Below are positions 3,098 to 37,359 of a stretch of 40,000 bases of DNA, one piece after another (the first letter of the stretch is position 1; every line of letters begins with the position of its first letter). A program made the translations under genes and the position numbers. Location of the stretch: NCBI RefSeq assembly GCF_014656395.1, contig NZ_BNCI01000001.1, positions 925,893-965,892 on the forward strand, written 5' to 3'. The notes under the pieces were generated by a model. That model searched no databases and was not told the origin of the DNA. It saw only the letters and a list, made by a program, of their open reading frames with translations. This DNA is from Kordiimonas sediminis (lineage in GTDB: Bacteria > Pseudomonadota > Alphaproteobacteria > Sphingomonadales > Kordiimonadaceae).

Positions 3098-3772
3098 CTA
3101 TAAAGGGCCGACACTTAGGGCTAAAATACGGGAAATATGGGCGTACGGACGGCCACTTTCCTGGTGCCAGGTGTCAAAGGCAGTCTGTACTTTTCTTAGG
3201 GCGGATTTAGACGTGGGGTTTTTGTCAATGACCCCTTCTCGTATGAGGGCCTTTGTTACATCCCGTGAAAATACCCAGCCGTCTTTCCCGATCGAGCGCA
3301 GGAAATACTGCGCAGACGTGCCGCCAAGCCGTGATCCCCGCTTTTTTAGCATGTCGAGCAGGCCGATAAAGTCCGTCATCGGCCAGTTAGCGATACAGGT
3401 AGCAGCCGACCCGTAAGCGTCTTCAAGATCACAGAGCAAAATGGCATTATCGCGCACGGTGATGATTTTCTGACCATTGCGGACGATCCGGGTATCTTTC
3501 AGAAGGCTGTCCAGATCATCGTCAGACATGAATTTCCAGCGTACTGGTACAAACCCTTCGAAGGCTTCTTCAAAACCGTCCCATTTATTGTCGATAACTT
3601 TCCAGCTGAAGCCTGCCTGGAAAATGGCACGGGTCATCGCAGCCAATATTCGGTCATCCGGCACGGCCTGCAGGGCGTCGGGGGTTTTGATTTGCGGCAT
3701 CAGGGCGTCGATATCTGCACGGCTACCGCGGAAACTGGCCGCCATATCTATCAGTGTGTCTATGGTTTGCAT
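3098..3772 (-). CDS. tag: DNA-3-methyladenine glycosylase I (Tag) family protein
   Basis: ATG 3772 is preceded by AGGGG. The central region aligns by eye to E. coli Tag (IFQAGFSWKVI..., IVRNGQKI, LKKRGSRLGGTSAQYFL). The N-terminus differs from E. coli Tag: no Cys/His zinc motif seen. Confidence 0.7.
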   Translation of the reverse strand: MQTIDTLIDMAASFRGSRADIDALMPQIKTPDALQAVPDDRILAAMTRAIFQAGFSWKVIDNKWDGFEEAFEGFVPVRWKFMSDDDLDSLLKDTRIVRNGQKIITVRDNAILLCDLEDAYGSAATCIANWPMTDFIGLLDMLKKRGSRLGGTSAQYFLRSIGKDGWVFSRDVTKALIREGVIDKNPTSKSALRKVQTAFDTWHQESGRPYAHISRILALSVGPL

Positions 3773-3880
3773 TCATTCGCCCCTTTTTTTGTCGATATGA
3801 TAGTGCTTCACATTGTTTTCAGACAATATTTTTGTTACACGGCGTTGCCTCTATATTGGTAAGTATAATAGATTGTTCAG

Positions 3881-4399
3881 ATGCCCAGTGATCATTTAAA
3901 AAGTTTTGGATTCCCCAGGTGGGGTGAATACGGTCGTGACCGGGACGCTGAACCTGTGCGGATGTGTGATTATACCGGGTGTAGTGAACGGGGCGACCAT
4001 CCGGCGCCCAAATCGCCAAATTCGCCGGAGCGTTGGTATTTCTGCAGGCCCCATGCCGCAGAATATAACAGAAACTGGAATTATTTTCAGGGCATGAGTG
4101 ACGATGAAGTCAAAGAGGCAATGAACGATGGCAGCGAATCAGCCGATGCCTTTGCCCAGGCCCGTACCTTTGAATGGGGCGGCGCGGTGGATGCCGACGG
4201 CAATTCATCCACGGAATTGACGGCCTATGATGTTCTGGAGGTGGATGCAGGATCAAGCGCGGATTTGATCAAAAAGCAGTATCGGAGGCTTGCCAAAATT
4301 TATCATCCGGATTCCAACCCCGGTGATCCGGCTGCGGCAGAACGGTTTCACGAAATCCAGACGGCCTATGATGTCCTGCGCGCCAAGCACGGGTTCTAG
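3881..4399 (+). CDS. J-domain (DnaJ-like) protein
   Basis: C-terminal J domain with HPD (YDVLEV...YRRLAKIYHPDSNPGD...FHEIQTAYDVL). Cys/His-rich N-terminal segment. Confidence 0.8.
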   Translation: MPSDHLKSFGFPRWGEYGRDRDAEPVRMCDYTGCSERGDHPAPKSPNSPERWYFCRPHAAEYNRNWNYFQGMSDDEVKEAMNDGSESADAFAQARTFEWGGAVDADGNSSTELTAYDVLEVDAGSSADLIKKQYRRLAKIYHPDSNPGDPAAAERFHEIQTAYDVLRAKHGF

Positions 4400-14010: not shown

Positions 14011-15138
14011 ATGAAAAATAGACAAGATCAGATAATTGGCAGCTCCCCCGCTTTCCTTGACCTGCTGGACCAGATTTCCCGTGCGGCACCGCTGGATCGC
14101 CCTATGTTGGTGATCGGGGAACGCGGCACGGGTAAGGAGCTGATTGCGGCCCGACTGCATTTTCTTTCCAATCGGTGGAATGAAAATTATCAGAAGCTGA
14201 ACTGTGCGGCATTGCCTGACAGTCTGCTGGAAAGTGAACTGTTCGGGTATGAACCCGGTGCGTTCACCGGTGCCACCAAGCGGCGTAAGGGCCGGTTTGA
14301 AGTGTCTGACAAAGGCAGTCTGTTTCTGGATGAAATTGGCACCATGAGCATGAGTGCGCAGGAAAAACTCCTGCGGGTTATTGAATACGGGGAATTTGAG
14401 CGGGTAGGCGGGTCTGAAACCCAGACGGTGGATGTCCGTGTTATTGGGGCCACCAATATTGATCTGCCGTCCGCTGCGGCGGTGGGTGCGTTTCGTCACG
14501 ACCTTCTGGACAGGCTTGCGTTTGATGTTATCACCGTCCCTCCCTTGCGGGAAAGGAAAGAGGATATCCCGGTGCTTGCAGAAACCTTTGGTATGCAGAT
14601 GGCGCGGGAACAGGAGTGGCTTCAATTCCCCGGATATACCAAAGGGGCGATGGATGCGATGCTTGATTATCACTGGCCTGGGAATGTGCGTGAACTGAAG
14701 AATGTGGTGGAACGGGCTGTGTACCGCGCCTGGGACGGCGAAGAGCCAATTGATGACATTGTTTTCGACCCGTTTGCCAGCCCGTTTCGGCCCAAAGGTG
14801 TTGCCGCACAGCCCTTGTCGTCGCCGCCAGGGTACCGGCTGCCTGTTTCTAAAGGCGATACAGTAGCAGTGCCGCCAGCACCAGAAGCAGCCAGTACCGG
14901 CAAGGGGCACGGTAACGGTCTTGGCCAGTCTTTATCGCAGTTACCTGAAGGAGACTTCTGTCTGCGGTCAATGACAGCAGAGTATGAACGGACGTTGCTC
15001 GGAGACGTGTTAAAACGTAATCGCTATAACCAGCGGCAGGCAGCGAAAGAAGCAGGTCTCACATATGACCAATTTCGCCATGCCTTGAAAAAGCATGATA
15101 TTTTATCGGTTGACCCCGAAGCACAACCAGATGTCTAG
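14011..15138 (+). CDS. pspF: Sigma-54-dependent transcriptional activator PspF (no receiver domain)
   Basis: AAA+ domain starts at the N-terminus. Walker A GERGTGKE, GAFTGA motif (YEPGAFTGA), C-terminal HTH (NQRQAAKEAGLTYDQFRHALKKH). Divergent from pspABC. Confidence 0.9.
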   Translation: MKNRQDQIIGSSPAFLDLLDQISRAAPLDRPMLVIGERGTGKELIAARLHFLSNRWNENYQKLNCAALPDSLLESELFGYEPGAFTGATKRRKGRFEVSDKGSLFLDEIGTMSMSAQEKLLRVIEYGEFERVGGSETQTVDVRVIGATNIDLPSAAAVGAFRHDLLDRLAFDVITVPPLRERKEDIPVLAETFGMQMAREQEWLQFPGYTKGAMDAMLDYHWPGNVRELKNVVERAVYRAWDGEEPIDDIVFDPFASPFRPKGVAAQPLSSPPGYRLPVSKGDTVAVPPAPEAASTGKGHGNGLGQSLSQLPEGDFCLRSMTAEYERTLLGDVLKRNRYNQRQAAKEAGLTYDQFRHALKKHDILSVDPEAQPDV

Positions 15139-24412: not shown

Positions 24413-24904
24413 ATGCTGAAATCACTCACAACAATATTTACACTTTTGCTTTTTAGCTCCTCTGGGCTGTTGGCACAGGAGATCGGCGCCAGCGGAAATC
24501 CGATACCGCGCTTCGTGTCCCTGAAGGCAGAAAAAGCCTACATGCGAACAGGGCCTGGGCGTCAGTTTCCTATTGAATGGACATATAAGCGTAGCGGCTT
24601 ACCCCTTGAAGTTGTTGGGGAAAACGGGCCGTGGCGGAACGTACGAGATCACGAAGGTTCGACGGGCTGGATGCATCTGCGGTTACTGTCAAGTGCCCGT
24701 ACCGCCATGATTCGTGGTGGTGCTGCCCGGCTGTATGCAGACCCGAATCCAACAGAGCGGGTGACGATTCTTGCCGATGAAGGAGTTATCGGTGACATAT
24801 TGGAATGCGAAGCAAATTGGTGTGAACTGGAAATCGCAGGTGAACACGGCTGGATACAGCGGGGGCGTTTGTGGGGCGTGTACCCCGGTGAAGTGATTGA
24901 CTAG
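24413..24904 (+). CDS. Bacterial SH3 domain protein (secreted)
   Basis: Signal peptide, then PRFVSLKAEKAYMRTGPGRQFPIEWTYKRSGLPLEVVGENGPWRNVRDHEGSTGWMH and a second SH3-like half. Confidence 0.7.
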   Translation: MLKSLTTIFTLLLFSSSGLLAQEIGASGNPIPRFVSLKAEKAYMRTGPGRQFPIEWTYKRSGLPLEVVGENGPWRNVRDHEGSTGWMHLRLLSSARTAMIRGGAARLYADPNPTERVTILADEGVIGDILECEANWCELEIAGEHGWIQRGRLWGVYPGEVID

Positions 24905-24908
24905 TAGC

Positions 24909-25850
24909 ATGACAGATATTCCCGGTTTTGAGTTTATCCCGTATCAGAGCGCGTACCGTTCCGATTTCGCCCGGCTGAACATTGATTGGCTGGAAGAGTT
25001 TTTTGTCGTCGAACCCATTGATGAATTGGTGCTTCATAACCCGGAGGACTATATCCTCAACAAAGGGGGCGATATTTTCTTCGCGCTTAAAGACGGCCAA
25101 GCAGTTGGCACTGTTGCGATGAAGGCGACAGACCGTACAGGAGTGTTTGAACTTACCAAGCTTGGTGTGGACAAAAGCTGTCAGGGTGCCGGCGTTGGCG
25201 AGGCTCTGTGCCAGATGGTGTTCGACCGGTTTATAGAGGTCGGCGGCGCGCTTCTGTTTTTGGAGACCAATACCAAACTGCAACCGGCTATTCGGCTTTA
25301 TAAACGGTTGGACTTCGTCGAAAAACCTCTTCCTTCTGACACCCCTTACGAGCGGGCAAACTATTATATGGAATGGCAGGGTGCGGGGCTTACAATCCAT
25401 TCGGCAACATCGCGCCGGGATATTGCCATTGTGCGGGACTTCTTTCAGGAATACGCCCACTGGCTGGAGGCGGAAACGGGCCTGTCTCTGGCTTTTCAAG
25501 GGTTTGAGGAGGAAATGGCCGGGTTTCCAAGCAAGTATGAAACCCTGTTGCTGGCAAAATATAACAGCAGGCCTGTCGGGGCGGTTGCTCTATTGAAGCA
25601 TGATGATGCTGTGTGCGAAATGAAACGCTTGTTTGTGACACCGTCCGGGTGGGGCAAGTCTGTTGGCAAGCATCTTAGTGTTGCGGTGATGGAAGAAGCC
25701 CGCCAGCGGGGGTTCACTGTGATGTTGCTGGATAGCCTGCGCCGCCTTGAGAATGCGGTGGCGTTATACCGCGCGCTTGGGTTCGAGGAAACGGACCCCT
25801 ATAACGAAAACCCGGAAGCCGATGTGGTCTATATGAAGCGGGATTTATAG
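24909..25850 (+). CDS. Tandem GNAT-domain N-acetyltransferase
   Basis: ATG 24909 (listed start 24897 is TTG). Two acetyl-CoA-binding-like blocks: QGAGVGEAL and WGKSVGKHL. Confidence 0.8.
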   Translation: MTDIPGFEFIPYQSAYRSDFARLNIDWLEEFFVVEPIDELVLHNPEDYILNKGGDIFFALKDGQAVGTVAMKATDRTGVFELTKLGVDKSCQGAGVGEALCQMVFDRFIEVGGALLFLETNTKLQPAIRLYKRLDFVEKPLPSDTPYERANYYMEWQGAGLTIHSATSRRDIAIVRDFFQEYAHWLEAETGLSLAFQGFEEEMAGFPSKYETLLLAKYNSRPVGAVALLKHDDAVCEMKRLFVTPSGWGKSVGKHLSVAVMEEARQRGFTVMLLDSLRRLENAVALYRALGFEETDPYNENPEADVVYMKRDL

Positions 25851-25886
25851 GAACAGTACCGGCAGCGTCTGTAGACACAAAAAAGC

Positions 25887-25903
25887 CCCCGCTAGTGCAG
25901 GGG
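25887..25903. repeat. Left copy of target-site duplication CCCCGCTAGTGCAGGGG
   Basis: Identical 17-mer at 35687-35703. The unambiguous core is GCTAGTGCAGGGG; the limits are blurred by adjacent C/G runs. Confidence 0.75.
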
Positions 25904-25932
25904 GGGGTATAGTGATATCTCACAAAAAATAA
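25904..25932. repeat. Left terminal inverted repeat
   Basis: GGGGTATAGTGATATCTCACAAAAAATAA. The reverse complement of 35658-35686 is GGGGTATAGTGATATCTTACAAAAAATAA (28/29 identical). Confidence 0.85.
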
Positions 25933-25956
25933 TTCAACGTGCATCACTGTAAGATT

Positions 25957-25989
25957 AAAGCCGCTTCTCTGAAATGGAGGCGGCTTTTT
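25957..25989 (-). terminator. Hairpin/terminator downstream of the Cas1-membrane protein operon
   Basis: AAAGCCGCTTC...GGAGGCGGCTTT stem (with G-U pairs) flanked by A/T runs, ~30 nt after the stop at 26017. Confidence 0.45.
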
Positions 25990-26016
25990 CTAGTCGGAAC
26001 GAATTAGATAACAGCT

Positions 26017-26691
26017 TTACTTACGATTTGCGAACGCAGACTGTTGCAGTACTGAGCGATATTCTTTTGCCAGTTTTTCCTTCATTTCTGCCTTCAGCCG
26101 TTTTGTGATTAACCTTTTGTATTTCCACCTTTTGAGCCAGTTTATCCCGTACCCACGCAAGAACATTGAAGCTTCACCTCTTGCGGCATTTAGCAGATCA
26201 CTTGGAGCACAATTCACTTCTAGTAATTGTTCTCGTACATGCCATGCCTCCATTTTATGTGGATTGGGGGGAGAGCAAAGGTGGTTCACTATTCTTAGTC
26301 GCCATTTTACGCTGTCGTCAAAAGCAATGACAGCGGCCCTTAGTGCATCAAGTTCAGCCTTGGCAGCATTCAATTTACTTATAAATGGTTTTAAACCGCT
26401 AATAATTTCCTCAAGCAATTTAACAAGTTCATTTTCAAGCTGTTGATCATAAGGTTTGCCTGATGTGTATAGACTGACAAGTTCATCCCCCAACTTTTTC
26501 GACATAGAGATCGATAGTATTGTCTTATCTTTAACATCAGTGTCCAAATACTCAAAAACCGCTGTTGCCAAATCAATTGACGCTTGGCCTCGGTTTTTAA
26601 ATAACCAGTAGTCTTTAATCCAAACAATCCAGATTAATATTATACCTCCAATTATTGAGGCTATAATTGCGCCTATCGTTAAGCCTTCCAT
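26017..26691 (-). CDS. Hypothetical membrane-anchored coiled-coil protein (element cargo)
   Basis: Best start is ATG 26691 (GAGGG 5 nt upstream), giving MEGLTIGAIIASIIGGIILIWIVWI (TM). The listed start 26733 is TTG and overlaps cas1. AT-rich. No family recognised. Confidence 0.5.
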   Translation of the reverse strand: MEGLTIGAIIASIIGGIILIWIVWIKDYWLFKNRGQASIDLATAVFEYLDTDVKDKTILSISMSKKLGDELVSLYTSGKPYDQQLENELVKLLEEIISGLKPFISKLNAAKAELDALRAAVIAFDDSVKWRLRIVNHLCSPPNPHKMEAWHVREQLLEVNCAPSDLLNAARGEASMFLRGYGINWLKRWKYKRLITKRLKAEMKEKLAKEYRSVLQQSAFANRK

Positions 26692-26719
26692 TTGCACCCT
26701 CATCCCAATTAGATCAAGT

Positions 26720-27811
26720 TTAACTCTGAGCAATCAATCTTGCCAACTCAGGTCCAAGTCTGCAAACACCATCTTCCTGCAAGATAAAGTCTGCCCCTGA
26801 GAAGGTTTCTTCCTGAACCAGCTTTAATATAGCCCTGTCAGCTATTGGCCGCTTGGGTTCCATCAGGTCGTAAATAAACGAATGCCGTTCAGCCACCATC
26901 CGGTCGTGCATGATACCAATTGAGGGGTCATAGCCATCTGCGATTGCTTCGATCCTGACACTACTTTCCAGCATCGTATAAGCATAATTCAGCATGGCAT
27001 TCACAGGATGTGTTGCATTGCGGTTTGACGGGGTTGTGAGTACGGCTAACGATGACCGTGAGAAGAAACGCTTCCATTCATCAGGGATAGGATATTTCCC
27101 CTGAGCCTTCCATTTAATATCTAGTGCGCGCCAAGCGAAAAAATAGCCCTGCGCGACCTGTCCTTCATACGCGAGAAGCTTAGATATATCCTGCGGCGGT
27201 TCTTCCTTGAGAAGCTTCAAGGTCGAATGTGCCTGATCAATGGCCTTGTCCCGCGAATGGGAAGCGGGGAGAATGTTTTCGAGATTGTAGAGCGTTTCCT
27301 TGATCTTGCCTTCAATGAGGGGTTTTGCAAACTTCAGCCTGTTTTCCTCGTTGGCCCGTGTCGCAATCTGCCACGTTACTTTCTGACGGTCAGCGGCATA
27401 GCCTGATGCACAGTGAACGGAAGCAATACGTCCATCCCACCGGAGCCTGATAAGGTCAACCTTCTGTTCGCTGAGCCAATCAAGGGCATCAAGGGTGATA
27501 TTGCCAGACCCGTCAACGAGGACAATGCGCGACGGTAAGGACAAATCTCCTTTGAAGAACTGGAACTCCCTGACCTGTTGAGGGAAGTGGGTAAAGCCAC
27601 CACGGACTATCAAGGTTCCTCTATCCACATGTAGGGAAACACCGTTCCCGGTCAGCACTAGGGGGGTCTGTTGTCTCTGCCTTCTTTTGCGTTTGGGGAT
27701 GCCAGCTTCACAGGCGGCAATCCAGTATTGGCAGCGTTCAGACCATTCATCAATCTGAGCTTCAGAGTCGCTTTTTTGAGATAACTGGTTCAATATGCCC
27801 CCTACATTCAA
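26720..27811 (-). CDS. cas1: Cas1 homologue (putative casposase)
   Basis: N-terminal beta domain (LVLTGNGVSLHVDRGTLIVRGG; RIVLVDGSGNITLDALDWL). Helical domain with E216 (LLAYEGQVAQGYF), NAMLNYAYTML, H302 (GIMHD), D315 (IYDLMEPKRPIAD). Start uncertain: TTG 27811, TTG 27793 or GTG 27658. Confidence 0.85.
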   Translation of the reverse strand: MNVGGILNQLSQKSDSEAQIDEWSERCQYWIAACEAGIPKRKRRQRQQTPLVLTGNGVSLHVDRGTLIVRGGFTHFPQQVREFQFFKGDLSLPSRIVLVDGSGNITLDALDWLSEQKVDLIRLRWDGRIASVHCASGYAADRQKVTWQIATRANEENRLKFAKPLIEGKIKETLYNLENILPASHSRDKAIDQAHSTLKLLKEEPPQDISKLLAYEGQVAQGYFFAWRALDIKWKAQGKYPIPDEWKRFFSRSSLAVLTTPSNRNATHPVNAMLNYAYTMLESSVRIEAIADGYDPSIGIMHDRMVAERHSFIYDLMEPKRPIADRAILKLVQEETFSGADFILQEDGVCRLGPELARLIAQS

Positions 27812-27845
27812 ATACTAATAATATCATATTGGATTCTAGCAAAAG

Positions 27846-28487
27846 ATGCAGATTAAGCCACGGAAAATATGGGAAAAAGGCACTGATTTAAATAAGGCTT
27901 GGCTGGAATATGCAACTGAAAATGAGCGTCAGAAGTATCTGGAATTAAATAACCATAAAATGGAATTTGGTAACGATATTGGTCGTAATATTCAGTTAGT
28001 TGGCAACCTTCTTAATAGGCCAAATCAAATTGAGAATTTAAAAGATGAATTACGCAATTCCCTAATTCAGAAATTGAAGAAAGGTGATTTACTTGCATTT
28101 GGGTATTCGATTTATCCCACTCTTGCGGGTGTGGCATCCCGAATAGAGAATGAATTCTGGATGCTGGCTACATGCAAATGGGAAAATGATGAAGCCCATA
28201 GCCGCTTTAAAGCATACCACCGAATTAAAATTATAAATCCAGACCTATTTCCAGATTTGGATTTAATTCCTGAAATTGGCCGACCATCCAAAGCGGCTAT
28301 TAGGGAAAAAGCAATATTGAGATGTATTGATAAAATTCCTGAATTTGAATTATTAACACATAAAGAAAAAGCCGAATTAATTCGTGCGGAAATAAAAGAA
28401 GAAAATCCAGACATAGACCCTTATGGTCCAGGGTATGGGGATGACGTTATTAAAAAGCAGGTAAATAAAATTCTGAAATCAATTTAA
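27846..28487 (+). CDS. Hypothetical protein (element cargo, AT-rich)
   Basis: 213-aa ORF from ATG 27846, divergent from cas1 with only a 34-nt gap. Contains an IGRPSKAAIREKAI segment. No family recognised. Confidence 0.5.
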   Translation: MQIKPRKIWEKGTDLNKAWLEYATENERQKYLELNNHKMEFGNDIGRNIQLVGNLLNRPNQIENLKDELRNSLIQKLKKGDLLAFGYSIYPTLAGVASRIENEFWMLATCKWENDEAHSRFKAYHRIKIINPDLFPDLDLIPEIGRPSKAAIREKAILRCIDKIPEFELLTHKEKAELIRAEIKEENPDIDPYGPGYGDDVIKKQVNKILKSI

Positions 28488-28643
28488 TTGAATTAATTAA
28501 TTTTAATTGGAATTAAGATCAGGAAATCATTTTCAAATAAGTAATTAGAATCAAATAGTTTTTCCCTTTATCCCGACTCCACAGCAACGCAAATTCGCGC
28601 AACGCTTCCTTCAAGTGACGAATCATTTTGAAAGGACGTTAGC

Positions 28644-29222
28644 GTGTCTAAGAAACGCGATTACAAAGCAGAATACAGGAGACGCATTGAGCGTGGCTTA
28701 GCCAGAGGGTTAAGCCGGTCTCAGGCCAGAGGCCACCCCAAAGCTGGGGAGCGTGGCATCACCTCGGGCGTAACAAAACCCACAAGCACCCCGGAGCTTG
28801 AAACAGCCCTGATGCATTTACGCGATGGGCAAACCCAAAAAGATGCTGCCAACAAGGCTGGGGTCTCCACTGACAAGTTCCGGCGGTTTCTTTACGGTAA
28901 TAAGTTGGCTACCCACCAAGGTCGTAAATGGATACTCACAGATGACAGACCAAGACGGGTGGCGGCAATTACAGATGGCCGCATTAAGGCTGTGACTGTC
29001 CCGAACTATTCGGAAGCTGAAAAAGCTGGGTCATTTTACCATGCTGTCAGCAAATTCATTAGTACCAATCAACCAGCCTACCTTCTTCCTTTTCTTGAGG
29101 ATGGTGTCAACGACATTAAGGGCAATTTTATTCCCTTTGAAACTAACCCCAATGAACTCCACCGCATCGCGTCGATGGACACCCCAGACTTTGCTGAAAT
29201 TTATCAAATTATTTCCAATTAA
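28644..29222 (+). CDS. HTH DNA-binding protein with strongly basic N-terminus
   Basis: GTG 28644 is preceded by AAAGGA. N-terminus YKAEYRRRIERGLARGLSRSQARGHPKAGE. Putative HTH QKDAANKAGVSTDKFRRFLYG. First gene of the HTH-HNH-polB cluster. Confidence 0.6.
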   Translation: MSKKRDYKAEYRRRIERGLARGLSRSQARGHPKAGERGITSGVTKPTSTPELETALMHLRDGQTQKDAANKAGVSTDKFRRFLYGNKLATHQGRKWILTDDRPRRVAAITDGRIKAVTVPNYSEAEKAGSFYHAVSKFISTNQPAYLLPFLEDGVNDIKGNFIPFETNPNELHRIASMDTPDFAEIYQIISN

Positions 29223-29233
29223 GGACTTTACCC

Positions 29234-29596
29234 ATGACCAAATACAAACCTGATGCTGAAGACCGCAGAGAACAAAGAATTAGACGACTAGGCTTTGATG
29301 ATCCCATGTGCGTTATCTGCGGAGAAGATTATGTTCTCTGCCTAGAGAAGCACCATGTAGCGGGGCGGAAGTATGATGATACAGAGGTTCCCGTCTGCTG
29401 CAACTGTCACCGCAAGCTTAGTGATAACCAGCTTGATTATCCTGACAGCAACCCCAATCAGGACCGTAACCTTCTGACTATCGGATATTTCCTGATGGGC
29501 CTCTCTGATCTATTTAAACTGCTTGCCGAGAAACTTATGGAGTTTGGCAATCACCTGATCGTCAATGCACACAGTCAGGAGCAGATTGATGAATAG
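29234..29596 (+). CDS. HNH endonuclease
   Basis: CVICG...LEKHHV...VPVCCNCHRKLS (CxxC / HH / CxxCH arrangement). The stop overlaps the polB start. Confidence 0.8.
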   Translation: MTKYKPDAEDRREQRIRRLGFDDPMCVICGEDYVLCLEKHHVAGRKYDDTEVPVCCNCHRKLSDNQLDYPDSNPNQDRNLLTIGYFLMGLSDLFKLLAEKLMEFGNHLIVNAHSQEQIDE

Positions 29597-32294
29597 TCAC
29601 GATATTCAGGAGATTGCAGTTCGTGCCTATACGGAGACACCGGACAGGCAACCCCTTGGCACCAAACCCCGAACGCGAGAGCAACGACCATCTGCCTACT
29701 CCCTCATCTTTGACTGTGAAACAACGGTTGATGCAGCACAGTCACTCAAGGTCGGCTTTTATCAAATCAGGAACAAAACAAGGCTGGCTGAGGAAGGACT
29801 ATTTTATGCGGCAGAGGCGTTAAGCTGCCGTGAAGTTGATCTTCTGGAAGCCTATGCAGAAAGGCATAGCCTACCCCTCAAAACCATTGAGGAGTTCAGA
29901 ACGCGGGTTTTCCTCAAGCATGCCTATTTCCGCAGGGCTTGTGTCGTGGGCTTCAACCTGCCTTTTGATATCTCCCGCATTGCCCTTGGCCACGGTGCCG
30001 CCAGAGGATCGTTCCGGGGTGGCTTTACGTTTAAGCTTTCTGAATACAAAAGTGATCCCTTTGTCCGGGTCAAGCATCTGAGTGCCAGAGCCGCCCTGAT
30101 GGATTTTGCTAGACCCGCCAAGCAGGAAACCACCCGCGGCATGCGGAAGAAAGGTCAAAAGACGCCAGCCTTCCGGGGCTATTTCACCGACCTGAAAACC
30201 TTGGCCGCAGCTCTCACGAGCCGGTCCTTCAGCCTTGATACGCTCGGCAAATATTTAGGCGTCAAAACTGGGAAAATGGAAACCGCAGAACACGGCCAGG
30301 AAATCACTACTGACTATCTCGACTATGCCCGGACAGACGTTCAGACAACATGGGAATGTTACGAGAAGCTGTTAGATATGTATGCAGCGCACAATCTGGA
30401 AACCCCAGCCCATAAAATCCTCAGTGAAGCGAGCCTTGGCAAAGCCTATTTGCAGCTTATGAATATCAAGCCGCTTTTGGCCTCAAACCCCGACTTGGAC
30501 AGGTCCATCTTCGGCACCATTATGTCGAGCTATTACGGGGGCCGAGCCGAGATCAGGATAAGGAAGGAAATCCGGCAGGTTCTCTATGCTGACTTCAAAT
30601 CCATGTATCCAACGGTTAGTGCCCTGATGGGGCTTTGGGCCTTTGTGACCGGGGATGACCTGACTTGGAAAACGTCAACCGACGAAACAAGAAACTTCCT
30701 AAAGACTGTCATCCTTGATGACCTCAAAACAAGAGAGACATGGAAGAAGCTGACAACCCTTGTTCGGGTCAAGCCGGCTGATGATATTTATCCGGTCCGG
30801 GCCAAATACAATAGCCGCGTTCACACCATTGGCTTGAACAAGTTAAGCACAGACCATTCCTTGTGGATGACCCTTGCTGACTGTATTGCCTCGAAAATCC
30901 TTTCTGGCAAAACCCCGGAGATTATTGAGGCCATCAGCTTTGAGCCGGGACAGCCACAACAGGATATGGAGCCGATATGCCTGTTTGGGTCAAATGAGTT
31001 TGCGGTTGATCCATACAGAGATGATGTCTTCACCAAACTGATTGATTTGAGGGACAGGGCCAAGGCTGACAGAAACCCTCTAGAGAAGGCCATCAAGATT
31101 GTCGCCAATTCCACTGGCTACGGCATCTTCATTGAAATTAACCGGGATGACGCCCCAAAGCCCGAACCCGTTAAGGTGTATGATCAGTTTGGCAGCGCAA
31201 GCCTTCAGGACATGAAAGCAATTGAGGAACCCGGCAAATATTTTCATCCGCTTATGGGGACGCTGATCACGGGAGCCGCACGGCTAATGCTGGCCCTAGC
31301 GGAACAGCTAACGCTCAATGAAGGACTTGGTTGGGTATTCTGTGACACTGACAGCATTGCTATGGCCAAGCCAAAGACGATGGCACAGGATGCATTTATC
31401 ACCAAAGCCGAAAGGGTCATCAAATGGTTTGAAAGCCTGAATCCCTACCAGAAGCCCGGATCAATCCTGCAAATGGAAGATACCAACTTTGATAAGGTGA
31501 CAGGAAAACACCTACCTCTTTACTGTCTCGCTATCTCAGCCAAACGCTATGCCCTGTTTAATCGGGACGGTAAAGGCAACCCTGTTCTCAGGAAAGCATC
31601 AGCCCACGGACTAGGGCACTTGAGGCCCCCATACCGCAATGAGGACACTTCAGACGCTGTTCCAGCCCCAACAGTCCCTTTAGGTGAGATTGGGGTGCAA
31701 CGCTGGCAGCATGACCTATGGTACAAGATTATTGAAGCGCATCTGTCAGGCCATCCCAATCAGGTGGCTCTCAATTGGCACCCGACTTTCGACAAGCCCG
31801 CTGTTAGCCGCTACGGAGCCACAAGCCCCCACATGCTTAAATGGATGGACCACTGGAATGCAGGACGGGAATACCCGCAGCAGGTAAGGCCCTTTGGCTT
31901 TATGGTATCCTTCTCAGCCAAGACCGGACCGTTTGCACCACCCCCAGAGGTTAGTCTTGTTGATCCTTCCAAGCGGGGCCGTCCCACAAAGGCTGAGACA
32001 CCCAAGCCGATTGCTCCTTTTGCCAGTGACCACAATGAAGCTGTTGCCAATGCCTTTGACCGCATAAGTGGGGAAGCGGTTGAACAATGCCAGCTTAAAA
32101 CCTACCGCGAAGCCCTGTGCCAGTATCACCTATCAACAGAGGATAAGTTTGATAATGGTGATTTCTGCGACTTCGGGGAGACGACACGACGGCATATCAC
32201 TGCAACCTCAATCAGGCTCGTCGGCAAGGAAGCAAACAAGGTGGGAGAGAGTGGGGAACTGCATCCATTAGCGAGAACTGCGGAGTTTTTCTAA
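29589..32294 (+). CDS. polB: Family B DNA polymerase (casposon-type; protein-primed-like layout)
   Basis: AGGAG 29577-29581 precedes ATG 29589 (ATG 29565 is an alternative). Motifs: ExoI FDCET, ExoII NLPFD, ExoIII YARTD, motif A DFKSMYPT, motif B KIVANSTGYG, motif C FCDTDS, KxY-like SAKRYAL. Confidence 0.9.
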   Translation: MNSHDIQEIAVRAYTETPDRQPLGTKPRTREQRPSAYSLIFDCETTVDAAQSLKVGFYQIRNKTRLAEEGLFYAAEALSCREVDLLEAYAERHSLPLKTIEEFRTRVFLKHAYFRRACVVGFNLPFDISRIALGHGAARGSFRGGFTFKLSEYKSDPFVRVKHLSARAALMDFARPAKQETTRGMRKKGQKTPAFRGYFTDLKTLAAALTSRSFSLDTLGKYLGVKTGKMETAEHGQEITTDYLDYARTDVQTTWECYEKLLDMYAAHNLETPAHKILSEASLGKAYLQLMNIKPLLASNPDLDRSIFGTIMSSYYGGRAEIRIRKEIRQVLYADFKSMYPTVSALMGLWAFVTGDDLTWKTSTDETRNFLKTVILDDLKTRETWKKLTTLVRVKPADDIYPVRAKYNSRVHTIGLNKLSTDHSLWMTLADCIASKILSGKTPEIIEAISFEPGQPQQDMEPICLFGSNEFAVDPYRDDVFTKLIDLRDRAKADRNPLEKAIKIVANSTGYGIFIEINRDDAPKPEPVKVYDQFGSASLQDMKAIEEPGKYFHPLMGTLITGAARLMLALAEQLTLNEGLGWVFCDTDSIAMAKPKTMAQDAFITKAERVIKWFESLNPYQKPGSILQMEDTNFDKVTGKHLPLYCLAISAKRYALFNRDGKGNPVLRKASAHGLGHLRPPYRNEDTSDAVPAPTVPLGEIGVQRWQHDLWYKIIEAHLSGHPNQVALNWHPTFDKPAVSRYGATSPHMLKWMDHWNAGREYPQQVRPFGFMVSFSAKTGPFAPPPEVSLVDPSKRGRPTKAETPKPIAPFASDHNEAVANAFDRISGEAVEQCQLKTYREALCQYHLSTEDKFDNGDFCDFGETTRRHITATSIRLVGKEANKVGESGELHPLARTAEFF

Positions 32295-32387
32295 CTCAGC
32301 TTTGGTCCTTCTATGACGTTTTCTGGATGGAGGTTTATACCTAATGCTACATACTGTTGTATTGGTTCTCTGTTAGCAAATAAATCC

Positions 32388-35138
32388 TTAGGGTTTTTCA
32401 ATCAATTTAATATCTTCTGTCGTTAATCCGTACAGCTCATAAACCATTTTGTCGATTTCACAATCAGTCTGATCAATCTCACTTTTAATATCTAGCACTC
32501 TAGCCTTTTCCTTTTCAAAATACTCCATCCATTCAGACTTTTGAGAAAGCGATAGCTTTGCAGGCTTTATAGACTTTTCAAGTTCCGCTATAAAATCGAA
32601 GAAAGACAATTCGTACCAGATTTCTAGCTTCTTGGACATTCTATCTATTCTGAACTCAGATTTAATCAAACGTCCTAGTTTCTCTCTTGTAGAATTTAAC
32701 ATCTCATTATTTTTTATGATCGAATTTGCTTTATTTACAAATTTTGTCTGTCTTTTTATATCAGTTCTAGGAATGGGATAATTATTTACGTCTTTAATAA
32801 CAGCTTTAGGAAACATGCTGCGATTTCCTTTTACTGCTCTTCTGGAATGGTAAAAACCCATCAAACTAGAATTTAATATGCAAAGCACAAACTTCAACAA
32901 GTAGTCGTTATCCAGAGCAAGAATATTAATAATACTTTTGTTGTTTAAAAATGTGCCCTCAACATATGTAGCTTGTAATAGCTTTGGATATTTCCCAGTT
33001 ATCTCTCGTATTAAAACTCTTGGCCCAGAAAACATAGAAATATCTCGAGGTTGAGATAACCACTTTCCGTATCTTAACCACTTTCCAGACCAGCTTACAT
33101 CATACCTAAGTACATCTTTTCCTTCTAAATATTTAAAAGTATCTTCATCGTATTTATGGTCATAATCATAAATGTGGTCTTTGACGTCTCGGGCAGTTTG
33201 TTTAGGCGTTCCCTTACCTTTCTCGTAAGCCTGCAAGCCAGCTTTTACTTCATAAAAGTTTGATAGTGGCGCATGCGCTTCAATTTTTTTTATTGTCTCT
33301 AACTCTGCACCTGAACTCTGGAGGTCGAAGATATAAGATTCAATTTTCTTCCATTCCTCCTGAGGAGCAGACAAGCATGGTGTTTCCAGTTCTGTAGCCG
33401 AATAGATATTTTTGAAGTTAACTATATTTTTTTTGTTAATTGTGTTTGATGCGCAAAAAATAGCAGCCTCAACATTAGCCCCATCAAATGTATTTCCTAA
33501 TAAATTCAGCACTGTATTTAAAGATACTTTTTCCAAGAGAAATTCTCTGGTCAGCATAGCTGAATCTGTTCCTAAGACAGAATTAGGTACAATATATGAT
33601 AAGTAGCCTTTATCTTTTAATAGAGAAAACCCTAGCTCGATAAAAAGGATGTAGAGATTAATTTTATCCCTCACTAAAGAATAGTTAGCTCCTACATAAT
33701 CCTTAAAATTGTCAAATATATTATCTCTTGACAAAACATATGGAGGATTTCCAACAATTACATCGAATTTACCAGTTTGTATGATTTCGGAGAATTCTGA
33801 GCTCCAATTAAACGCTAAATCTCCGGCAATTTTGTGGTCGTCAATTAGCGAGTTTCCAACTTTGATGTTATCTTCTAAATATGTGAGTTTTTCCTGTCTG
33901 TTAGCTGTTTTAAGCCACAATGATAGCTTCGTTATTTCCACGGATTCGCTATTCAAATCCACTCCATAAATATTATTCGCTAGTATGTGTGTGTCCCAAC
34001 GAAAGAGCGAGATTTGTTCATTCTTCAAATAGGCTAGCTGACTGTTTACCGCTTCACCTTCTTTTTTTAGATAATCAAAAACCTCATTCAAAAATGCCCC
34101 AGAACCACAGGCCGGATCGAGAACCCTTATTTTTGAAAGCGTATTTTTATATGCTTCCCAGAAGTCAATATGTCGCCTAACTTTCTTGGCAATCTGTTGC
34201 CGCTTTGTTTTAAATTCTTGCGTAGTTTTTTTTGTGAAACTTTTGCTTTTAGTATCGACACGGTGAAGATCGAATTCTTCTTCTGTTATCTCAGGTAAGC
34301 TATCCCCGGCGAGTTCTTTCTTCCGGTCATTTAACCAACCACCTACAGCCAGCTCTACAATGTAGCGGGTTATGTATGGAGGAGTATAAAAAACACCGTC
34401 CTTTTTCTTTTTACTTTTTTTCTTGTCTAAAGGTTCTTCTATACCCTCTGCTTTTGCCTTGATCTCTTCAAGGTCGCTAATTGACTGTTCGAAAATATGA
34501 CCAAGAATATTAACGCTTACATCACTCTCAAAATCGTAATCCCCAATCCTCTTGAAGCCCTGACAGAGTTCATCACTAATATTTAGGGTGTCTAGTTCAA
34601 GGGTTTGTTTAAAGAGACCACCATTATATGCAGGAATATTGAGTTCAGAATTGCCTTTATCAATCGCGTGAAACAGGCCTTTAAAATTTTCCCATATCGG
34701 CTGTGGATTATAAGGGTTTTTCGTCGCATAAGCTTGTTTTAAAGTGTCTTTAGGTAATAGCCCTTTGTCTTCTGCAAAAGCGATAAAAAGAACACGATCT
34801 AAGATGGTTTGGGCAAATTGGACTACCTCAATTGGTTCTTGATGAGGATTATCGTCTCCAATTTTTTTGATCAGGTTTGCTCTCAGGTCTTTGTAATCTG
34901 AATATAACTGGTCGGTAATTTCTTTATCAATTTTTTCACTTTCTTTGAGCAAATCATATGTCGTACCCCCCAATAGATTTTTTGCGGAAAGTAATAAAAT
35001 AAAACGCGCATAATCTTTTGGATTGCTTAAGTTGGATAAATCAAAGACCTCATAATCTTTCCGGCCATAACCTACGGCATATAGTCTGAGTTCGCGGTAA
35101 TTGGAGACGCAAACCCATCGTGCACCTTTTGCGTCCAT
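32388..35138 (-). CDS. Type IIG restriction-modification enzyme, large fragment (N6-adenine methyltransferase + specificity domains)
   Basis: Motif I VLDPACGSGAFL, motif IV VGNPPYV, C-terminal tail VYELYGLTTEDIKLIE typical of Eco57I/MmeI-like fused enzymes. AT-rich. Confidence 0.85.
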   Translation of the reverse strand: MDAKGARWVCVSNYRELRLYAVGYGRKDYEVFDLSNLSNPKDYARFILLLSAKNLLGGTTYDLLKESEKIDKEITDQLYSDYKDLRANLIKKIGDDNPHQEPIEVVQFAQTILDRVLFIAFAEDKGLLPKDTLKQAYATKNPYNPQPIWENFKGLFHAIDKGNSELNIPAYNGGLFKQTLELDTLNISDELCQGFKRIGDYDFESDVSVNILGHIFEQSISDLEEIKAKAEGIEEPLDKKKSKKKKDGVFYTPPYITRYIVELAVGGWLNDRKKELAGDSLPEITEEEFDLHRVDTKSKSFTKKTTQEFKTKRQQIAKKVRRHIDFWEAYKNTLSKIRVLDPACGSGAFLNEVFDYLKKEGEAVNSQLAYLKNEQISLFRWDTHILANNIYGVDLNSESVEITKLSLWLKTANRQEKLTYLEDNIKVGNSLIDDHKIAGDLAFNWSSEFSEIIQTGKFDVIVGNPPYVLSRDNIFDNFKDYVGANYSLVRDKINLYILFIELGFSLLKDKGYLSYIVPNSVLGTDSAMLTREFLLEKVSLNTVLNLLGNTFDGANVEAAIFCASNTINKKNIVNFKNIYSATELETPCLSAPQEEWKKIESYIFDLQSSGAELETIKKIEAHAPLSNFYEVKAGLQAYEKGKGTPKQTARDVKDHIYDYDHKYDEDTFKYLEGKDVLRYDVSWSGKWLRYGKWLSQPRDISMFSGPRVLIREITGKYPKLLQATYVEGTFLNNKSIINILALDNDYLLKFVLCILNSSLMGFYHSRRAVKGNRSMFPKAVIKDVNNYPIPRTDIKRQTKFVNKANSIIKNNEMLNSTREKLGRLIKSEFRIDRMSKKLEIWYELSFFDFIAELEKSIKPAKLSLSQKSEWMEYFEKEKARVLDIKSEIDQTDCEIDKMVYELYGLTTEDIKLIEKP

Positions 35139-35153
35139 TGCATATTCCCATGC

Positions 35154-35525
35154 TTATTGGACTGGTGTTTTATAGCGACCCGGCATTATACTATCGAGGT
35201 CTTTTGTCTTGGCACCTTTTAATTCGAATGGTACTTGAATTTTTGTCTCAGTTTCGCTGAACTCCCCTAATGCAACGTCTACATTTCCGCGTCCAACAGG
35301 TTGGTTTTTGGCTACGGTCCAACTATGAGTATCGCTACTTCTTGTATACCCTAAAACCTCAACGAGAATTCGCTGTATGAATACGTCATCGTTCTGAATT
35401 TCACTATCGTATCTTCCAAGTGATAAATTAGTAGCCCACGCCTTAAGTATCTCAGCATGGTTTTCAGGCACTTCATTAATATGTTGTGCGTGTTTCTCAA
35501 CAATTCTTGGATGGAGTAATGCCAT
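35154..35525 (-). CDS. Type IIG enzyme, N-terminal fragment carrying the PD-(D/E)xK nuclease motif
   Basis: GNVDVAL...(19 aa)...PFELKGAK (D...ExK). Ends at TAA 35154-35156, in the same frame as the 32388..35138 ORF. Confidence 0.7.
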   Translation of the reverse strand: MALLHPRIVEKHAQHINEVPENHAEILKAWATNLSLGRYDSEIQNDDVFIQRILVEVLGYTRSSDTHSWTVAKNQPVGRGNVDVALGEFSETETKIQVPFELKGAKTKDLDSIMPGRYKTPVQ

Positions 35526-35657
35526 AAAGAAAATTCAACCAATACTATTGATGGATTTTATTGATTGAACGGTAGCCTACAACATTAATGTTCTCAACTC
35601 TTAATGGATATTATAATTCTAAGACGAAAAGCTCCCCCAACGTTTTAGGAGAGCCAT

Positions 35658-35686
35658 TTATTTTTTGTAAGATATCACTATACCCC
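35658..35686. repeat. Right terminal inverted repeat
   Basis: TTATTTTTTGTAAGATATCACTATACCCC, the inverted partner of 25904-25932. Confidence 0.85.
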
Positions 35687-35703
35687 CCCCGCTAGTGCAG
35701 GGG
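35687..35703. repeat. Right copy of target-site duplication CCCCGCTAGTGCAGGGG
   Basis: Identical to 25887-25903. Confidence 0.75.
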
Positions 35704-35727: not shown

Positions 35728-37359
35728 CTAGCCGAGTTTTTTCGGCGCAGTCGCTTTTACCGAATCGTCAACATGTGATTCGAACTTTTCAAAGTTCGCA
35801 ACAAACAGTCCAGCCAGGTGATCTGCTTTTGCGTCGTATGCATCTTTGTCCGCCCATGTTTCGCGCGGCGTCAGAATTGCAGAATCAACACCGGCGATCG
35901 CTGTTGGTACTTCAAAGCCGAATCGCTCATCAACACGCATGGATACGTCATTCAGGCTACCGTCCAGCGCAGCATGAAGCATCGCGCGGGTCTGCTTGAT
36001 AGGCATCCGGTGTCCTGTGCCGTACTCGCCGCCGGTCCAGCCAGTGTTAACAAGCCAGCATCTTACGTTACCTTCTGCGATTTTCTTGCGCAGCAGGTCA
36101 CCGTAAACAGCAGGGTGGCGCGGCATGAACGGGCCGCCAAAACATGCAGAGAAAGTCGCCTGCGGCTCTTTCACGCCAATCTCGGTACCCGCAACCTTGG
36201 CCGTGTAACCAGACAGGAAGTGATACATTGCCTGTTCCGGAGAAAGGCGGGAGATTGGAGGCAGGACACCAAAGGCATCAGCGGTAAGCATGATGATGTT
36301 TGTTGGCTTGCCGCCGCGGTTTTCCTCGGACGTGTTAGGAATAGACGTCAATGGATAGGCCGCGCGCGTGTTTTCTGCCAAACTATTGTCAAACAGGTCC
36401 AGTTCGCGGGTTGCTTCGTCCATCACCACATTTTCTACAACTGTCCCGAACATGTGGGTCGTTGCATAAATTTCCGGTTCTGCTTCGGCGCTGAGGTTGA
36501 TCAGCTTGGCGTAACAGCCGCCTTCGAAGTTGAAGACACTGTCATCAGACCAGCCGTGCTCGTCATCACCGATCAGGGTACGGCTGCTGTCCGCGGACAG
36601 GGTTGTCTTCCCGGTGCCAGACAGGCCAAAGAAGATCGCTACATCACCGTCCGGGCCGATGTTGGCGGAACAGTGCATTGGCATGACACCCTTTGGTGGC
36701 AGCAGATAATTGAGGATGGAGAAGACAGACTTCTTATTTTCACCGGCATATTCAGTGCCGCCGATAAGAACCAGTCCTTTGGAGAAGTTCACCGCGATAA
36801 TTGTTTCAGAACGGCAACCCATTGTTTCAGGATCAGCGCGGAAACTTGGCAGGTTAATGATTGTGAACTGCGGTGCCATATCCGCCATTTCACCGGCTTC
36901 CGGTTCGATCAGCATAGTCCGGCAAAACAGGCTGTGCCATGCATATTCGCCGACTGTCCGTACCGCAATACGGTGGGTAGGATCGCTACCGCCCCAAAGG
37001 TCCTGAATGAACAGTTCCTTGTCTTTCATATGATCCTGGAAAGCAGTGTAGATACGGTCAAAGTTTTCCGGTGTCATTGGGCGGTTAACATCGCCCCACC
37101 ATACAGTATCTTCAGTGGTTTCATCCCGAACTGTAAATTTGTCATTCGCAGAGCGACCGGTATGCTTGCCTGTTTTTACAACAAGTGGACCGTCTTTTGC
37201 GAGAGAGCCTTCGCCGCGGCGGATGGCTTCTTCATACAGTTGTTCGGTGGTCAAGTTCCAATATTGGTTGCCAGTCTTCGTGATGCCCTGAGCATCCAAG
37301 TCGACTTTACTATGGCGGGAGCCGTATACTTGCACGGTAATTGTCTCCGTTGCTATCAC
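35728..37359 (-). CDS. pckA: Phosphoenolpyruvate carboxykinase (ATP)
   Basis: [14 protein letters not shown], the kinase-1a loop [11 protein letters not shown], and overall PckA length. The start is GTG 37359, or GTG 37335 (GGAGA upstream). Confidence 0.95.

Follow-up and report, generated by a model that had tools for sequence, protein, structure and literature searches.

We analyzed a 40,000-nucleotide stretch of the Kordiimonas sediminis genome (here called the window; NCBI RefSeq assembly GCF_014656395.1, contig NZ_BNCI01000001.1, positions 925,893 to 965,892). At its center of interest is an open reading frame (ORF) on the minus strand (26720 to 27811) that a first-pass annotation, made from the sequence alone, had described as a stand-alone Cas1. 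The ORF list of the window confirms this reading frame, which encodes 363 amino acids from its outermost TTG start. The gene does not stand alone, however. A family B DNA polymerase (PolB) gene lies 1.7 kb away, genes for HNH and helix-turn-helix (HTH) proteins are found with it, and the group is bounded by terminal inverted repeats (TIRs) and a target site duplication (TSD). This ORF is very probably the casposase gene of a family-3 casposon that spans 9,782 bp (25904 to 35685), is complete and apparently intact, and belongs to the HenMar-C1 / HypCY54-C1 / CitBat-C1 lineage. The features of the locus are as follows, in window coordinates:

25886 to 25903, no strand: left TSD copy, CCCCCGCTAGTGCAGGGG, a GC-rich hairpin after an A-run.
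25904 to 25932, plus strand: left (cas1-proximal) TIR, GGGGTATAGTGATATCTCACAAAAAATAA, an inverted repeat with 35658 to 35685.
26017 to 26703, minus strand, starting at ATG 26703 or 26691: cargo gene for a protein with one N-terminal transmembrane (TM) helix and no recognizable family.
26720 to 27793, minus strand: casposase (Cas1 homolog), 357 amino acids, most likely from TTG 27793 (maximal ORF from TTG 27811, 363 amino acids); identified from Pfam, NCBIfam, the casposase structure 6OPM, and an AlphaFold2 model; conserved N-terminal helix and KRKRR stretch, Cas1 N-terminal beta domain, and catalytic alpha domain (E216, H302, D315, and E318).
27846 to 28487, plus strand: variable gene, 213 amino acids, located where HenMar-C1 has its first (MerR-like) HTH gene.
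28644 to 29222, plus strand: conserved HTH protein, 192 amino acids, HTH at about residues 49 to 96.
29234 to 29596, plus strand: HNH / C4 zinc-binding endonuclease, 120 amino acids, CxxC..HH..CxxCH (PHROG HNH families, E = 1e-4).
29565 to 32294, plus strand: family B DNA polymerase, 909 amino acids (Pfam PF03175, E = 6e-9).
32388 to 35138, minus strand: cargo gene for a type IIG restriction enzyme-methyltransferase, Eco57I/MmeI-like with a TaqI_C specificity domain (Pfam).
35154 to 35525, minus strand: small cargo ORF, 123 amino acids, directly upstream of the type IIG gene.
35658 to 35685, minus strand: right (polB-distal) TIR, whose reverse complement is GGGTATAGTGATATCTTACAAAAAATAA.
35686 to 35703, no strand: right TSD copy, CCCCCGCTAGTGCAGGGG, then CTTTTC, 24 nt downstream of the pckA stop (35728).

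Classification of the ORF was consistent across profiles, sequence searches, and predicted structure. The Pfam Cas_Cas1 profile matched residues 52 to 360 (E = 3.2e-36), and the generic NCBIfam cas1 model (TIGR00287) scored 111.8 bits against a cutoff of 71.7. In contrast, the NCBIfam Cas1 models for CRISPR subtypes all scored far under their own cutoffs. The best sequence match in the Protein Data Bank (PDB) was the Methanosarcina mazei casposase 6OPM (E = 5.5e-24), with query residues 50 to 361 aligned to residues 20 to 307 of the 431-residue chain; the best CRISPR Cas1 followed at 5.2e-13. An AlphaFold2 model built on 19 homologs (pLDDT 80, pTM 0.76) likewise returned 6OPM chains at the top of a Foldseek comparison with the PDB (E = 2.5e-18, TM-score 0.68), and many CRISPR Cas1s ranked below them. 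The product is a real, intact Cas1-family integrase, and since 6OPM leads both searches, it stands nearer to the casposases (Cas1-solo group 2) than to CRISPR Cas1 by sequence and predicted structure. In an alignment of the 19 homologs, which are 48 to 66% identical to the window protein, E216, H302, D315, and E318 are invariant, as is the NAMLNY helix (N271 to Y276), and the catalytic motifs align with their equivalents in 6OPM. The first-pass annotation had named E216, H302, and D315 as an intact Cas1 active site, had pointed to an NAxLNYxY helix, and had proposed a profile and structure comparison; the residues and the helix were as it described, and the comparison upheld the Cas1 fold.

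Other details of that annotation also held. There is no in-frame ATG in the ORF, both TTG 27811 and TTG 27793 are present, and a GGGGG stretch ends 4 nt before the latter. Because the Met starts of the homologs line up with L7, which corresponds to TTG 27793, and because of the upstream GGGGG, translation most likely begins at this codon. A third candidate it had listed, GTG 27658, can be discarded, since the invariant residues W23 to R44 sit upstream of it. Those residues lie in the basic extension that it had noticed ahead of the Cas1 core. This extension spans about 45 amino acids, and W23, R26, W30, and R41-K42-R43-R44 are invariant among the 19 homologs, marking it as real coding sequence under selection. 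In the AlphaFold2 model it has a pLDDT of 35 to 58, with a low-confidence helix (residues 22 to 36) followed by a disordered KRKRRQRQQ stretch. The NCBI product for the gene (Kordiimonas sediminis, P0001 in our collection) is named "CRISPR-associated protein Cas1" and starts at an internal TTG, equivalent to L90. The annotated protein of 274 amino acids is thus missing 89 N-terminal residues, half of the N-terminal domain.

At the other end, the casposase stops two residues past the end of the alignment with 6OPM (residue 307 of 431). This is the point at which the HTH of 6OPM starts, so our protein has no counterpart of the C-terminal HTH, about 120 residues long, that the family-2 enzyme carries. 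The first-pass annotation was right about this absence and wrong to treat it as unusual: the Cas1 proteins of HenMar-C1 and StrAlb-C1 have no additional domains (PMC4046053), and family-1 casposases likewise lack the HTH (PMC8464041).

The boundaries of the element are marked by composition and by repeats. GC content is 0.36 to 0.48 inside the element versus 0.51 to 0.55 on both sides. When anchored, the two TIRs (28 and 29 nt) are identical at 28 of 30 positions. The left TIR fits a consensus of 66 ends, GGGGGTATAGtnATnTCC..AAAAATA, and the 3' end of the TIR at the end of the element reads ...CTATACCCC. The TSD copies form a perfect repeat of at most 18 nt, which can be recognized as direct rather than inverted because the loop of the hairpin is asymmetric. 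Since the TIR and the hairpin meet at their G-runs, the length of the TSD is ambiguous; it is 15 to 17 nt when four to five G's are counted into the TIR (in the window, 17 or 15). The reconstructed preinsertion site reads AAAAAAG-CCCCCGCTAGTGCAGGGG-CTTTTC, with the target as AAAAAAGCCCCCGCTAGTGCAGGGGCTTTTC. It resembles the hairpin of a bidirectional intrinsic terminator, 35 nt past the stop of a GNAT gene on the plus strand and 24 nt past the stop of pckA on the minus strand. The insertion disrupted no gene, and at the cas1 end a hairpin with a T-run faces outward. This left copy of the hairpin is still scored as a terminator on the minus strand, the strand of transcripts that exit the element from cas1.

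To describe the gene content, we compared the element with its relatives. Homologs of the casposase fell into 670 protein clusters (E ≤ 1e-5), nearly all of them 355 to 370 amino acids long. When one genome per species was scanned, 181 loci turned up; most belong to Alphaproteobacteria (Hyphomonadaceae, Sphingomonadales, Rhodobacterales, and Rhodospirillaceae) and a few to other Proteobacteria. Synteny was counted in the best 80 of the 181. HTH, HNH, and PolB genes divergently adjoin cas1 in 63 to 70 of these 80 loci. The HTH gene, present in 70 with fixed synteny, is the "HTH" gene F550_08000 of HenMar-C1, and the HNH gene, syntenic in 63, is equivalent to F550_08005 of HenMar-C1 ("HNH, ZBD (C4)," where ZBD is a zinc-binding domain). 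The two assignments draw on weak profile matches plus motifs. For the HTH protein, these are weak matches to the KorA, HTH_28, HTH_29, and HTH_23 profiles together with an N-terminal motif that is invariant in the homolog alignment, RDYKAEYRRRI..G..RGLSRSQARGH. Tyr11 of this protein is invariant as well; to ascribe a priming role to it would be pure speculation.

PolB is present at 65 of the 80 loci. Its exonuclease motifs (ExoI FDCETT, ExoII NLPFD, and ExoIII YARTD) and polymerase motifs (motif A DFKSMYP, motif B KIVANSTGYG, motif C FCDTDS, and KxY as KRY, K660 to Y662) are all intact and invariant in the homolog alignment. Similarity to reference PolBs was weak and mixed, with 26 bits for His2 virus, 14 for PRD1, and 13 for Pol II. 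Profile comparisons by hhalign, which also covered phi29, as did hmmsearch, placed PRD1 and Escherichia coli Pol II at similar probabilities, and the PolB profile searched against the PDB returned only nonsignificant matches to Pol II. Such mixed similarities fit the PolB_CDTDS cluster, which includes a casposon polymerase and has ties to the main PolB group as well as to the protein-primed one (Kazlauskas et al. 2020, PMC7544198). On the basis of motif C and that study, we provisionally assign the enzyme to the casposon PolB_CDTDS type. A piPolB of the kind found in pipolins, with KTRG in place of KxY and an accompanying tyrosine integrase, was considered and rejected: KRY is conserved, and there is no tyrosine integrase. 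Homologs of this PolB form 2,693 protein clusters at E ≤ 0.001, and every name given to them is "hypothetical protein." No PolB product with 100% identity was present in the protein collection; the source genome may leave the gene unannotated or call it differently.

With a core of Cas1 plus HTH, HNH, and PolB, a pair of TIRs, and a flanking direct repeat, the element can be regarded as a complete casposon. The remaining genes are variable. The 213-aa ORF, which the first-pass annotation had seen as a divergent unknown ORF, does start at 27846 across a 34-nt gap from TTG 27811, as it stated. It is a variable gene of the element, and 16 of the 80 loci have a weak homolog (22 to 37% identity) in the equivalent place; scans of Pfam, NCBIfam, PHROG, and PADLOC gave no family match. 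The same-strand membrane-protein gene, which the annotation had placed 28 nt after the casposase stop, was found as described (ATG 26691, one TM helix) and proves to be cargo. Its product had no match in Pfam, NCBIfam, PHROG, or PADLOC and no homolog among the 80 related loci. The type IIG enzyme matched the PADLOC profile REase_MTase_IIG (E = 2e-126), and its gene has the lowest GC content in the window (0.36 to 0.38). The 123-aa ORF had no family match in the same four collections. We class these two genes and the TM protein as cargo because none recurs in the 80 related loci. The PADLOC match to the type IIG enzyme begins at profile position 126; on the same strand, the 123-aa ORF precedes the gene by 15 nt. 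The N-terminal part of the enzyme may be encoded separately or split. Searches of Pfam, NCBIfam, and PHROG found no tyrosine or serine recombinase and no DDE transposase among the eight ORFs of the element, and the 40-kb window contains no CRISPR-like repeats, tRNAs, or Rfam families.

Among known elements, the closest are the bacterial casposons, which were defined as family 3 (Krupovic et al. 2014, PMC4046053). HypCY54-C1 and CitBat-C1 were added later, with all bacterial casposons being intergenic (Krupovic et al. 2016, PMC4779613). The window Cas1 is 45% identical to the HenMar-C1 Cas1 from the supplement of the first paper (E = 6e-103). Our locus in Hyphomonas sp. CY54-11-8 (L008) is HypCY54-C1, since its two RepB/ParB genes and its serine recombinase fit the published description; here, identity is 60% for Cas1 and 51% for PolB. 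Judged by these pairwise identities, the window protein appears to group with the Cas1s of bacterial casposons. The published core of HenMar-C1 is Cas1 - HTH(MerR-like) - HTH - HNH/ZBD - PolB (Table S2, PMC4046053). The published Cas1 alignment begins at residue 56 of the HenMar-C1 protein (PMC4046053), which indicates that this protein has the same N-terminal extension. The window element thus shares with HenMar-C1, HypCY54-C1, and CitBat-C1 a Cas1 that has neither an HTH nor a zinc domain fused to it and whose start precedes the core by about 50 amino acids, the order Cas1 | HTH - HNH(C4) - PolB, an intergenic location, variable cargo, and a marine alphaproteobacterial host. It differs from them in its host order (Kordiimonadales, which is new), in its cargo of a type IIG restriction-modification enzyme and a TM protein, and in its size of 9.8 kb versus 14.8 to 16.3 kb. 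There is also a difference in how the ends are drawn. In the published drawing of HenMar-C1, the hairpin falls within the TIR and the direct repeat is 1 nt long (2014 supplement, Fig. S2, PMC4046053), whereas in the window and 32 relatives the loops show the hairpin to be a direct repeat, the TSD. In the Henriciella and Hyphomonas elements L011, L018, L035, L038, and L062, this repeat is 16 to 23 nt long.

Similarity to the archaeal families is more limited. Family-2 elements (M. mazei 6OPM and Aciduliprofundum boonei) share a casposase fold over about 310 residues with aligned catalytic E/H/D, as well as TIRs, the logic of a 14- to 15-bp TSD, genes for HNH and HTH proteins, and, by our provisional assignment, a gene for a CDTDS-type PolB. 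In contrast to the window enzyme, which has a conserved basic N-terminal extension instead, family-2 casposases carry a fused C-terminal HTH, reported to be indispensable (PMC8464041). The window element also resides in a bacterium, and its target is a palindromic hairpin rather than the 3' end of a tRNA. The family-1 casposase of "Ca. Nitrosopumilus koreensis" AR1 resembles ours in its lack of an HTH and in its similar size (347 amino acids), and it integrates sequence-specifically with a 13-bp TSD (PMC8464041). It is thaumarchaeal, however, with a protein-primed PolB and a target in the aEF-2 gene. CRISPR Cas1-Cas2 has in common with the window enzyme the Cas1 fold and active site and an integration reaction that duplicates a short, often palindromic repeat. 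The locus differs in that Cas2 and an array are both missing, and what is integrated is the 9.8-kb element.

We delimited 33 elements of the lineage, a set that includes the window element and two on metagenome contigs. They range from 7.5 to 15.9 kb and share the terminus GGGGGTATAG, with ends that read nGGGGGTATAGtnATnTCCgnnnAAAAATA; the core GGGTATAG served as the search anchor, so that only conservation beyond it is independent. A similar terminus, GGGGTATG..., was published for NitAL212-C1. A flanking direct repeat was present in 33 of 33, with a maximal length of 12 to 25 nt and a mode of 18. The true TSD is shorter than this maximum, because the G-run of the TIR abuts that of the repeat; with four or five G's assigned to the TIR, the mode becomes 15 or 13 nt. 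These lengths fall within what has been measured for casposases of families 1 and 2 (PMC8464041).

In most cases, the sequence that is duplicated as the target is GC-rich and palindromic (CCCC..GGGG). A folding free energy (dG) of −5 kcal/mol or lower was found for 79% of targets versus 27% of GC-matched controls from the same loci. An A-run precedes the repeat in 11 of the 33 elements (the window included) and a T-run follows it in 11; the window and several others have both, as a bidirectional terminator would. By a crude ORF-based check, at least one long flanking ORF aimed at the element ends within 150 nt in 24 of the 33, and this holds on both flanks in 12; the targets often lie downstream of genes. 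The literature that we searched contained no description of hairpin or terminator targeting by casposons. At three loci, a second, inverted TIR abuts the same hairpin or TSD (L002, approximately 3330 to 3390; L012, approximately 3840 to 3900; and L026, cas1 side, approximately 14120 to 14190). This arrangement of TIR, palindrome, and TIR points to tandem insertions, or to solo TIRs, at a single target, comparable to reports on Methanosarcina casposons.

The relatives also offered a view of mobility and cargo. One metagenome-assembled genome (MAG) contains four Cas1 loci (L001, L002, L005, and L036), with at least two complete elements at different sites. Many of the metagenome contigs that bear homologs are 8 to 12 kb long, which is about the size of an element. 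We considered whether these were free linear or circular forms and rejected the idea: in two of three such contigs (L085 and L087), a complete element with TSDs sits between short host flanks, and the third (L086) has no recognizable element end. The short contigs likely reflect assembly breaks at variable insertion sites and not excised forms. Defense genes were seen as cargo elsewhere, including an ABC-3C system in HypCY54-C1 (L008, 11743 to 15361), GmrSD with an AAA_21 ATPase (L085, 8566 to 11213), and an AAA_15/21 ATPase (L086, 85 to 1853). The cargo of these casposons is often anti-phage defense.

How might the element have inserted? By analogy with family-1 and family-2 casposases (PMC6977970, PMC8464041), an oligomer of the casposase would bind both GGGGGTATAG termini, and the 3'-OH ends of the TIRs would carry out two staggered transesterifications, about 13 to 17 bp apart, that flank a GC-rich palindrome. 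The palindrome attacked here would have been the bidirectional terminator that separates the GNAT gene from pckA, and gap repair would then have duplicated the hairpin into the TSD. The two-fold symmetry of a palindromic target may suit a symmetric Cas1 oligomer. Replication of the element is presumed to depend on its own PolB, provisionally of the CDTDS type. Family-2 casposases need their fused C-terminal HTH, and since ours has none, we propose a different source of DNA recognition. More speculatively, the DNA ends or the target are probably recognized by the conserved basic N-terminal extension, by the separate HTH protein (28644 to 29222), or by both. A broader proposal, which we consider possible yet doubtful, is that the lineage as a whole recognizes DNA palindromes (terminator-like or repetitive extragenic palindrome [REP]-like CCCC..GGGG hairpins) and duplicates the whole palindrome by means of the N-terminal arm, the HTH protein acting in trans, or both. 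Under this proposal, junctions would take the form TIR-palindrome-flank and, in some genomes, TIR-palindrome-TIR.

Several points weigh against the interpretation of the locus as an intact casposon that inserted in this manner. First, no empty site was found, either at the GNAT loci of three relatives or in exact searches of metagenome contigs with the window TIR and the reconstructed empty site. The relatives (Kordiimonas gwangyangensis, K. aestuarii, and Temperatibacter marinus; L081 to L084) share lepA, a 2-hydroxyacid dehydrogenase, SH3, and GNAT genes with the window and then continue with NMO-pnp-rpsO-truB, whereas the window has pckA-chvI-chvG. Because the right-hand genes differ, these loci are uninformative, and the case for insertion rests on TIRs, TSD, and composition. 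The break in synteny coincides with the casposon site (window 24897 to 25850 / 35728 to 37359). Second, the exact length of the TSD, between 15 and 18 nt, depends on the assignment of G's. Third, family-3 casposases are without biochemical study (PMC8464041), and each step of the mechanism is therefore an analogy. Fourth, the roles suggested for the N-terminal extension, which is modeled at low pLDDT, and for the HTH protein are our inference, and the putative subtype of PolB draws on motif C and mixed, weak similarities.

Despite its intact appearance, the element could be immobilized or domesticated, having inserted in the past and lost mobility while Cas1 or cargo such as the type IIG defense enzyme was kept for a function in the host. 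The window holds a single copy, the metagenomes yielded neither an empty site nor a second copy of the TIR, cas1 has a weak TTG start codon, and a defense gene on the element could be selected by the host. Even so, we regard this scenario as unlikely. The two TIRs have diverged at only 2 of 30 positions and the TSD is perfect over 18 nt, all four core ORFs have their full length and keep the invariant catalytic motifs, and the lineage is mobile, as judged from the MAG with four Cas1 loci and from insertion sites that differ between genomes.

Two further explanations are highly improbable. An orphan Cas1 from CRISPR adaptation, either a remnant of a degraded CRISPR-Cas locus or a protein that serves a distant array, would agree with the generic Cas1 models and the NCBI product name, but there is no cas2, repeat array, or CRISPR Rfam family in the 40 kb, no subtype-specific NCBIfam model reached its cutoff, the nearest solved relative is a casposase, and cas1 is accompanied by PolB, HNH, and TIRs at 63 to 70 of the 80 loci. 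Nor is the element at all likely to be a Cas1-encoding provirus: there is precedent in the Toil-like tectiviral prophages of Streptomyces, which were first named family-3 casposons (PMC5894146), and PolB is weakly similar to viral protein-primed polymerases (PF03175; His2, E = 2e-3), yet eight ORFs account for the 9.8 kb with no match to a capsid protein or packaging ATPase (PHROGs and Pfam), and none of 2.9 million IMG/VR contigs contained a relative of this Cas1.

The window element adds another member to the family-3 casposons and, on its own, changes little. The missing HTH, the gene order, and the lineage had already been published; what is modestly new is the breadth of the lineage, its shared terminus, the preference for palindromes, the N-terminal arm, and the defense cargo. 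With 181 loci and hundreds of protein clusters, this bacterial lineage is far more common than the handful of published elements. Database records can be corrected accordingly, since Cas1 is annotated at 274 amino acids and the PolB homologs bear no informative name. As a small bacterial enzyme that lacks an HTH and has a defined end and target, the casposase would be convenient for biochemistry on family 3. Finally, if palindrome targeting is true, it would offer a natural model, in bacteria, for the origin of palindromic CRISPR repeats and of leader-proximal integration from casposon target sites.

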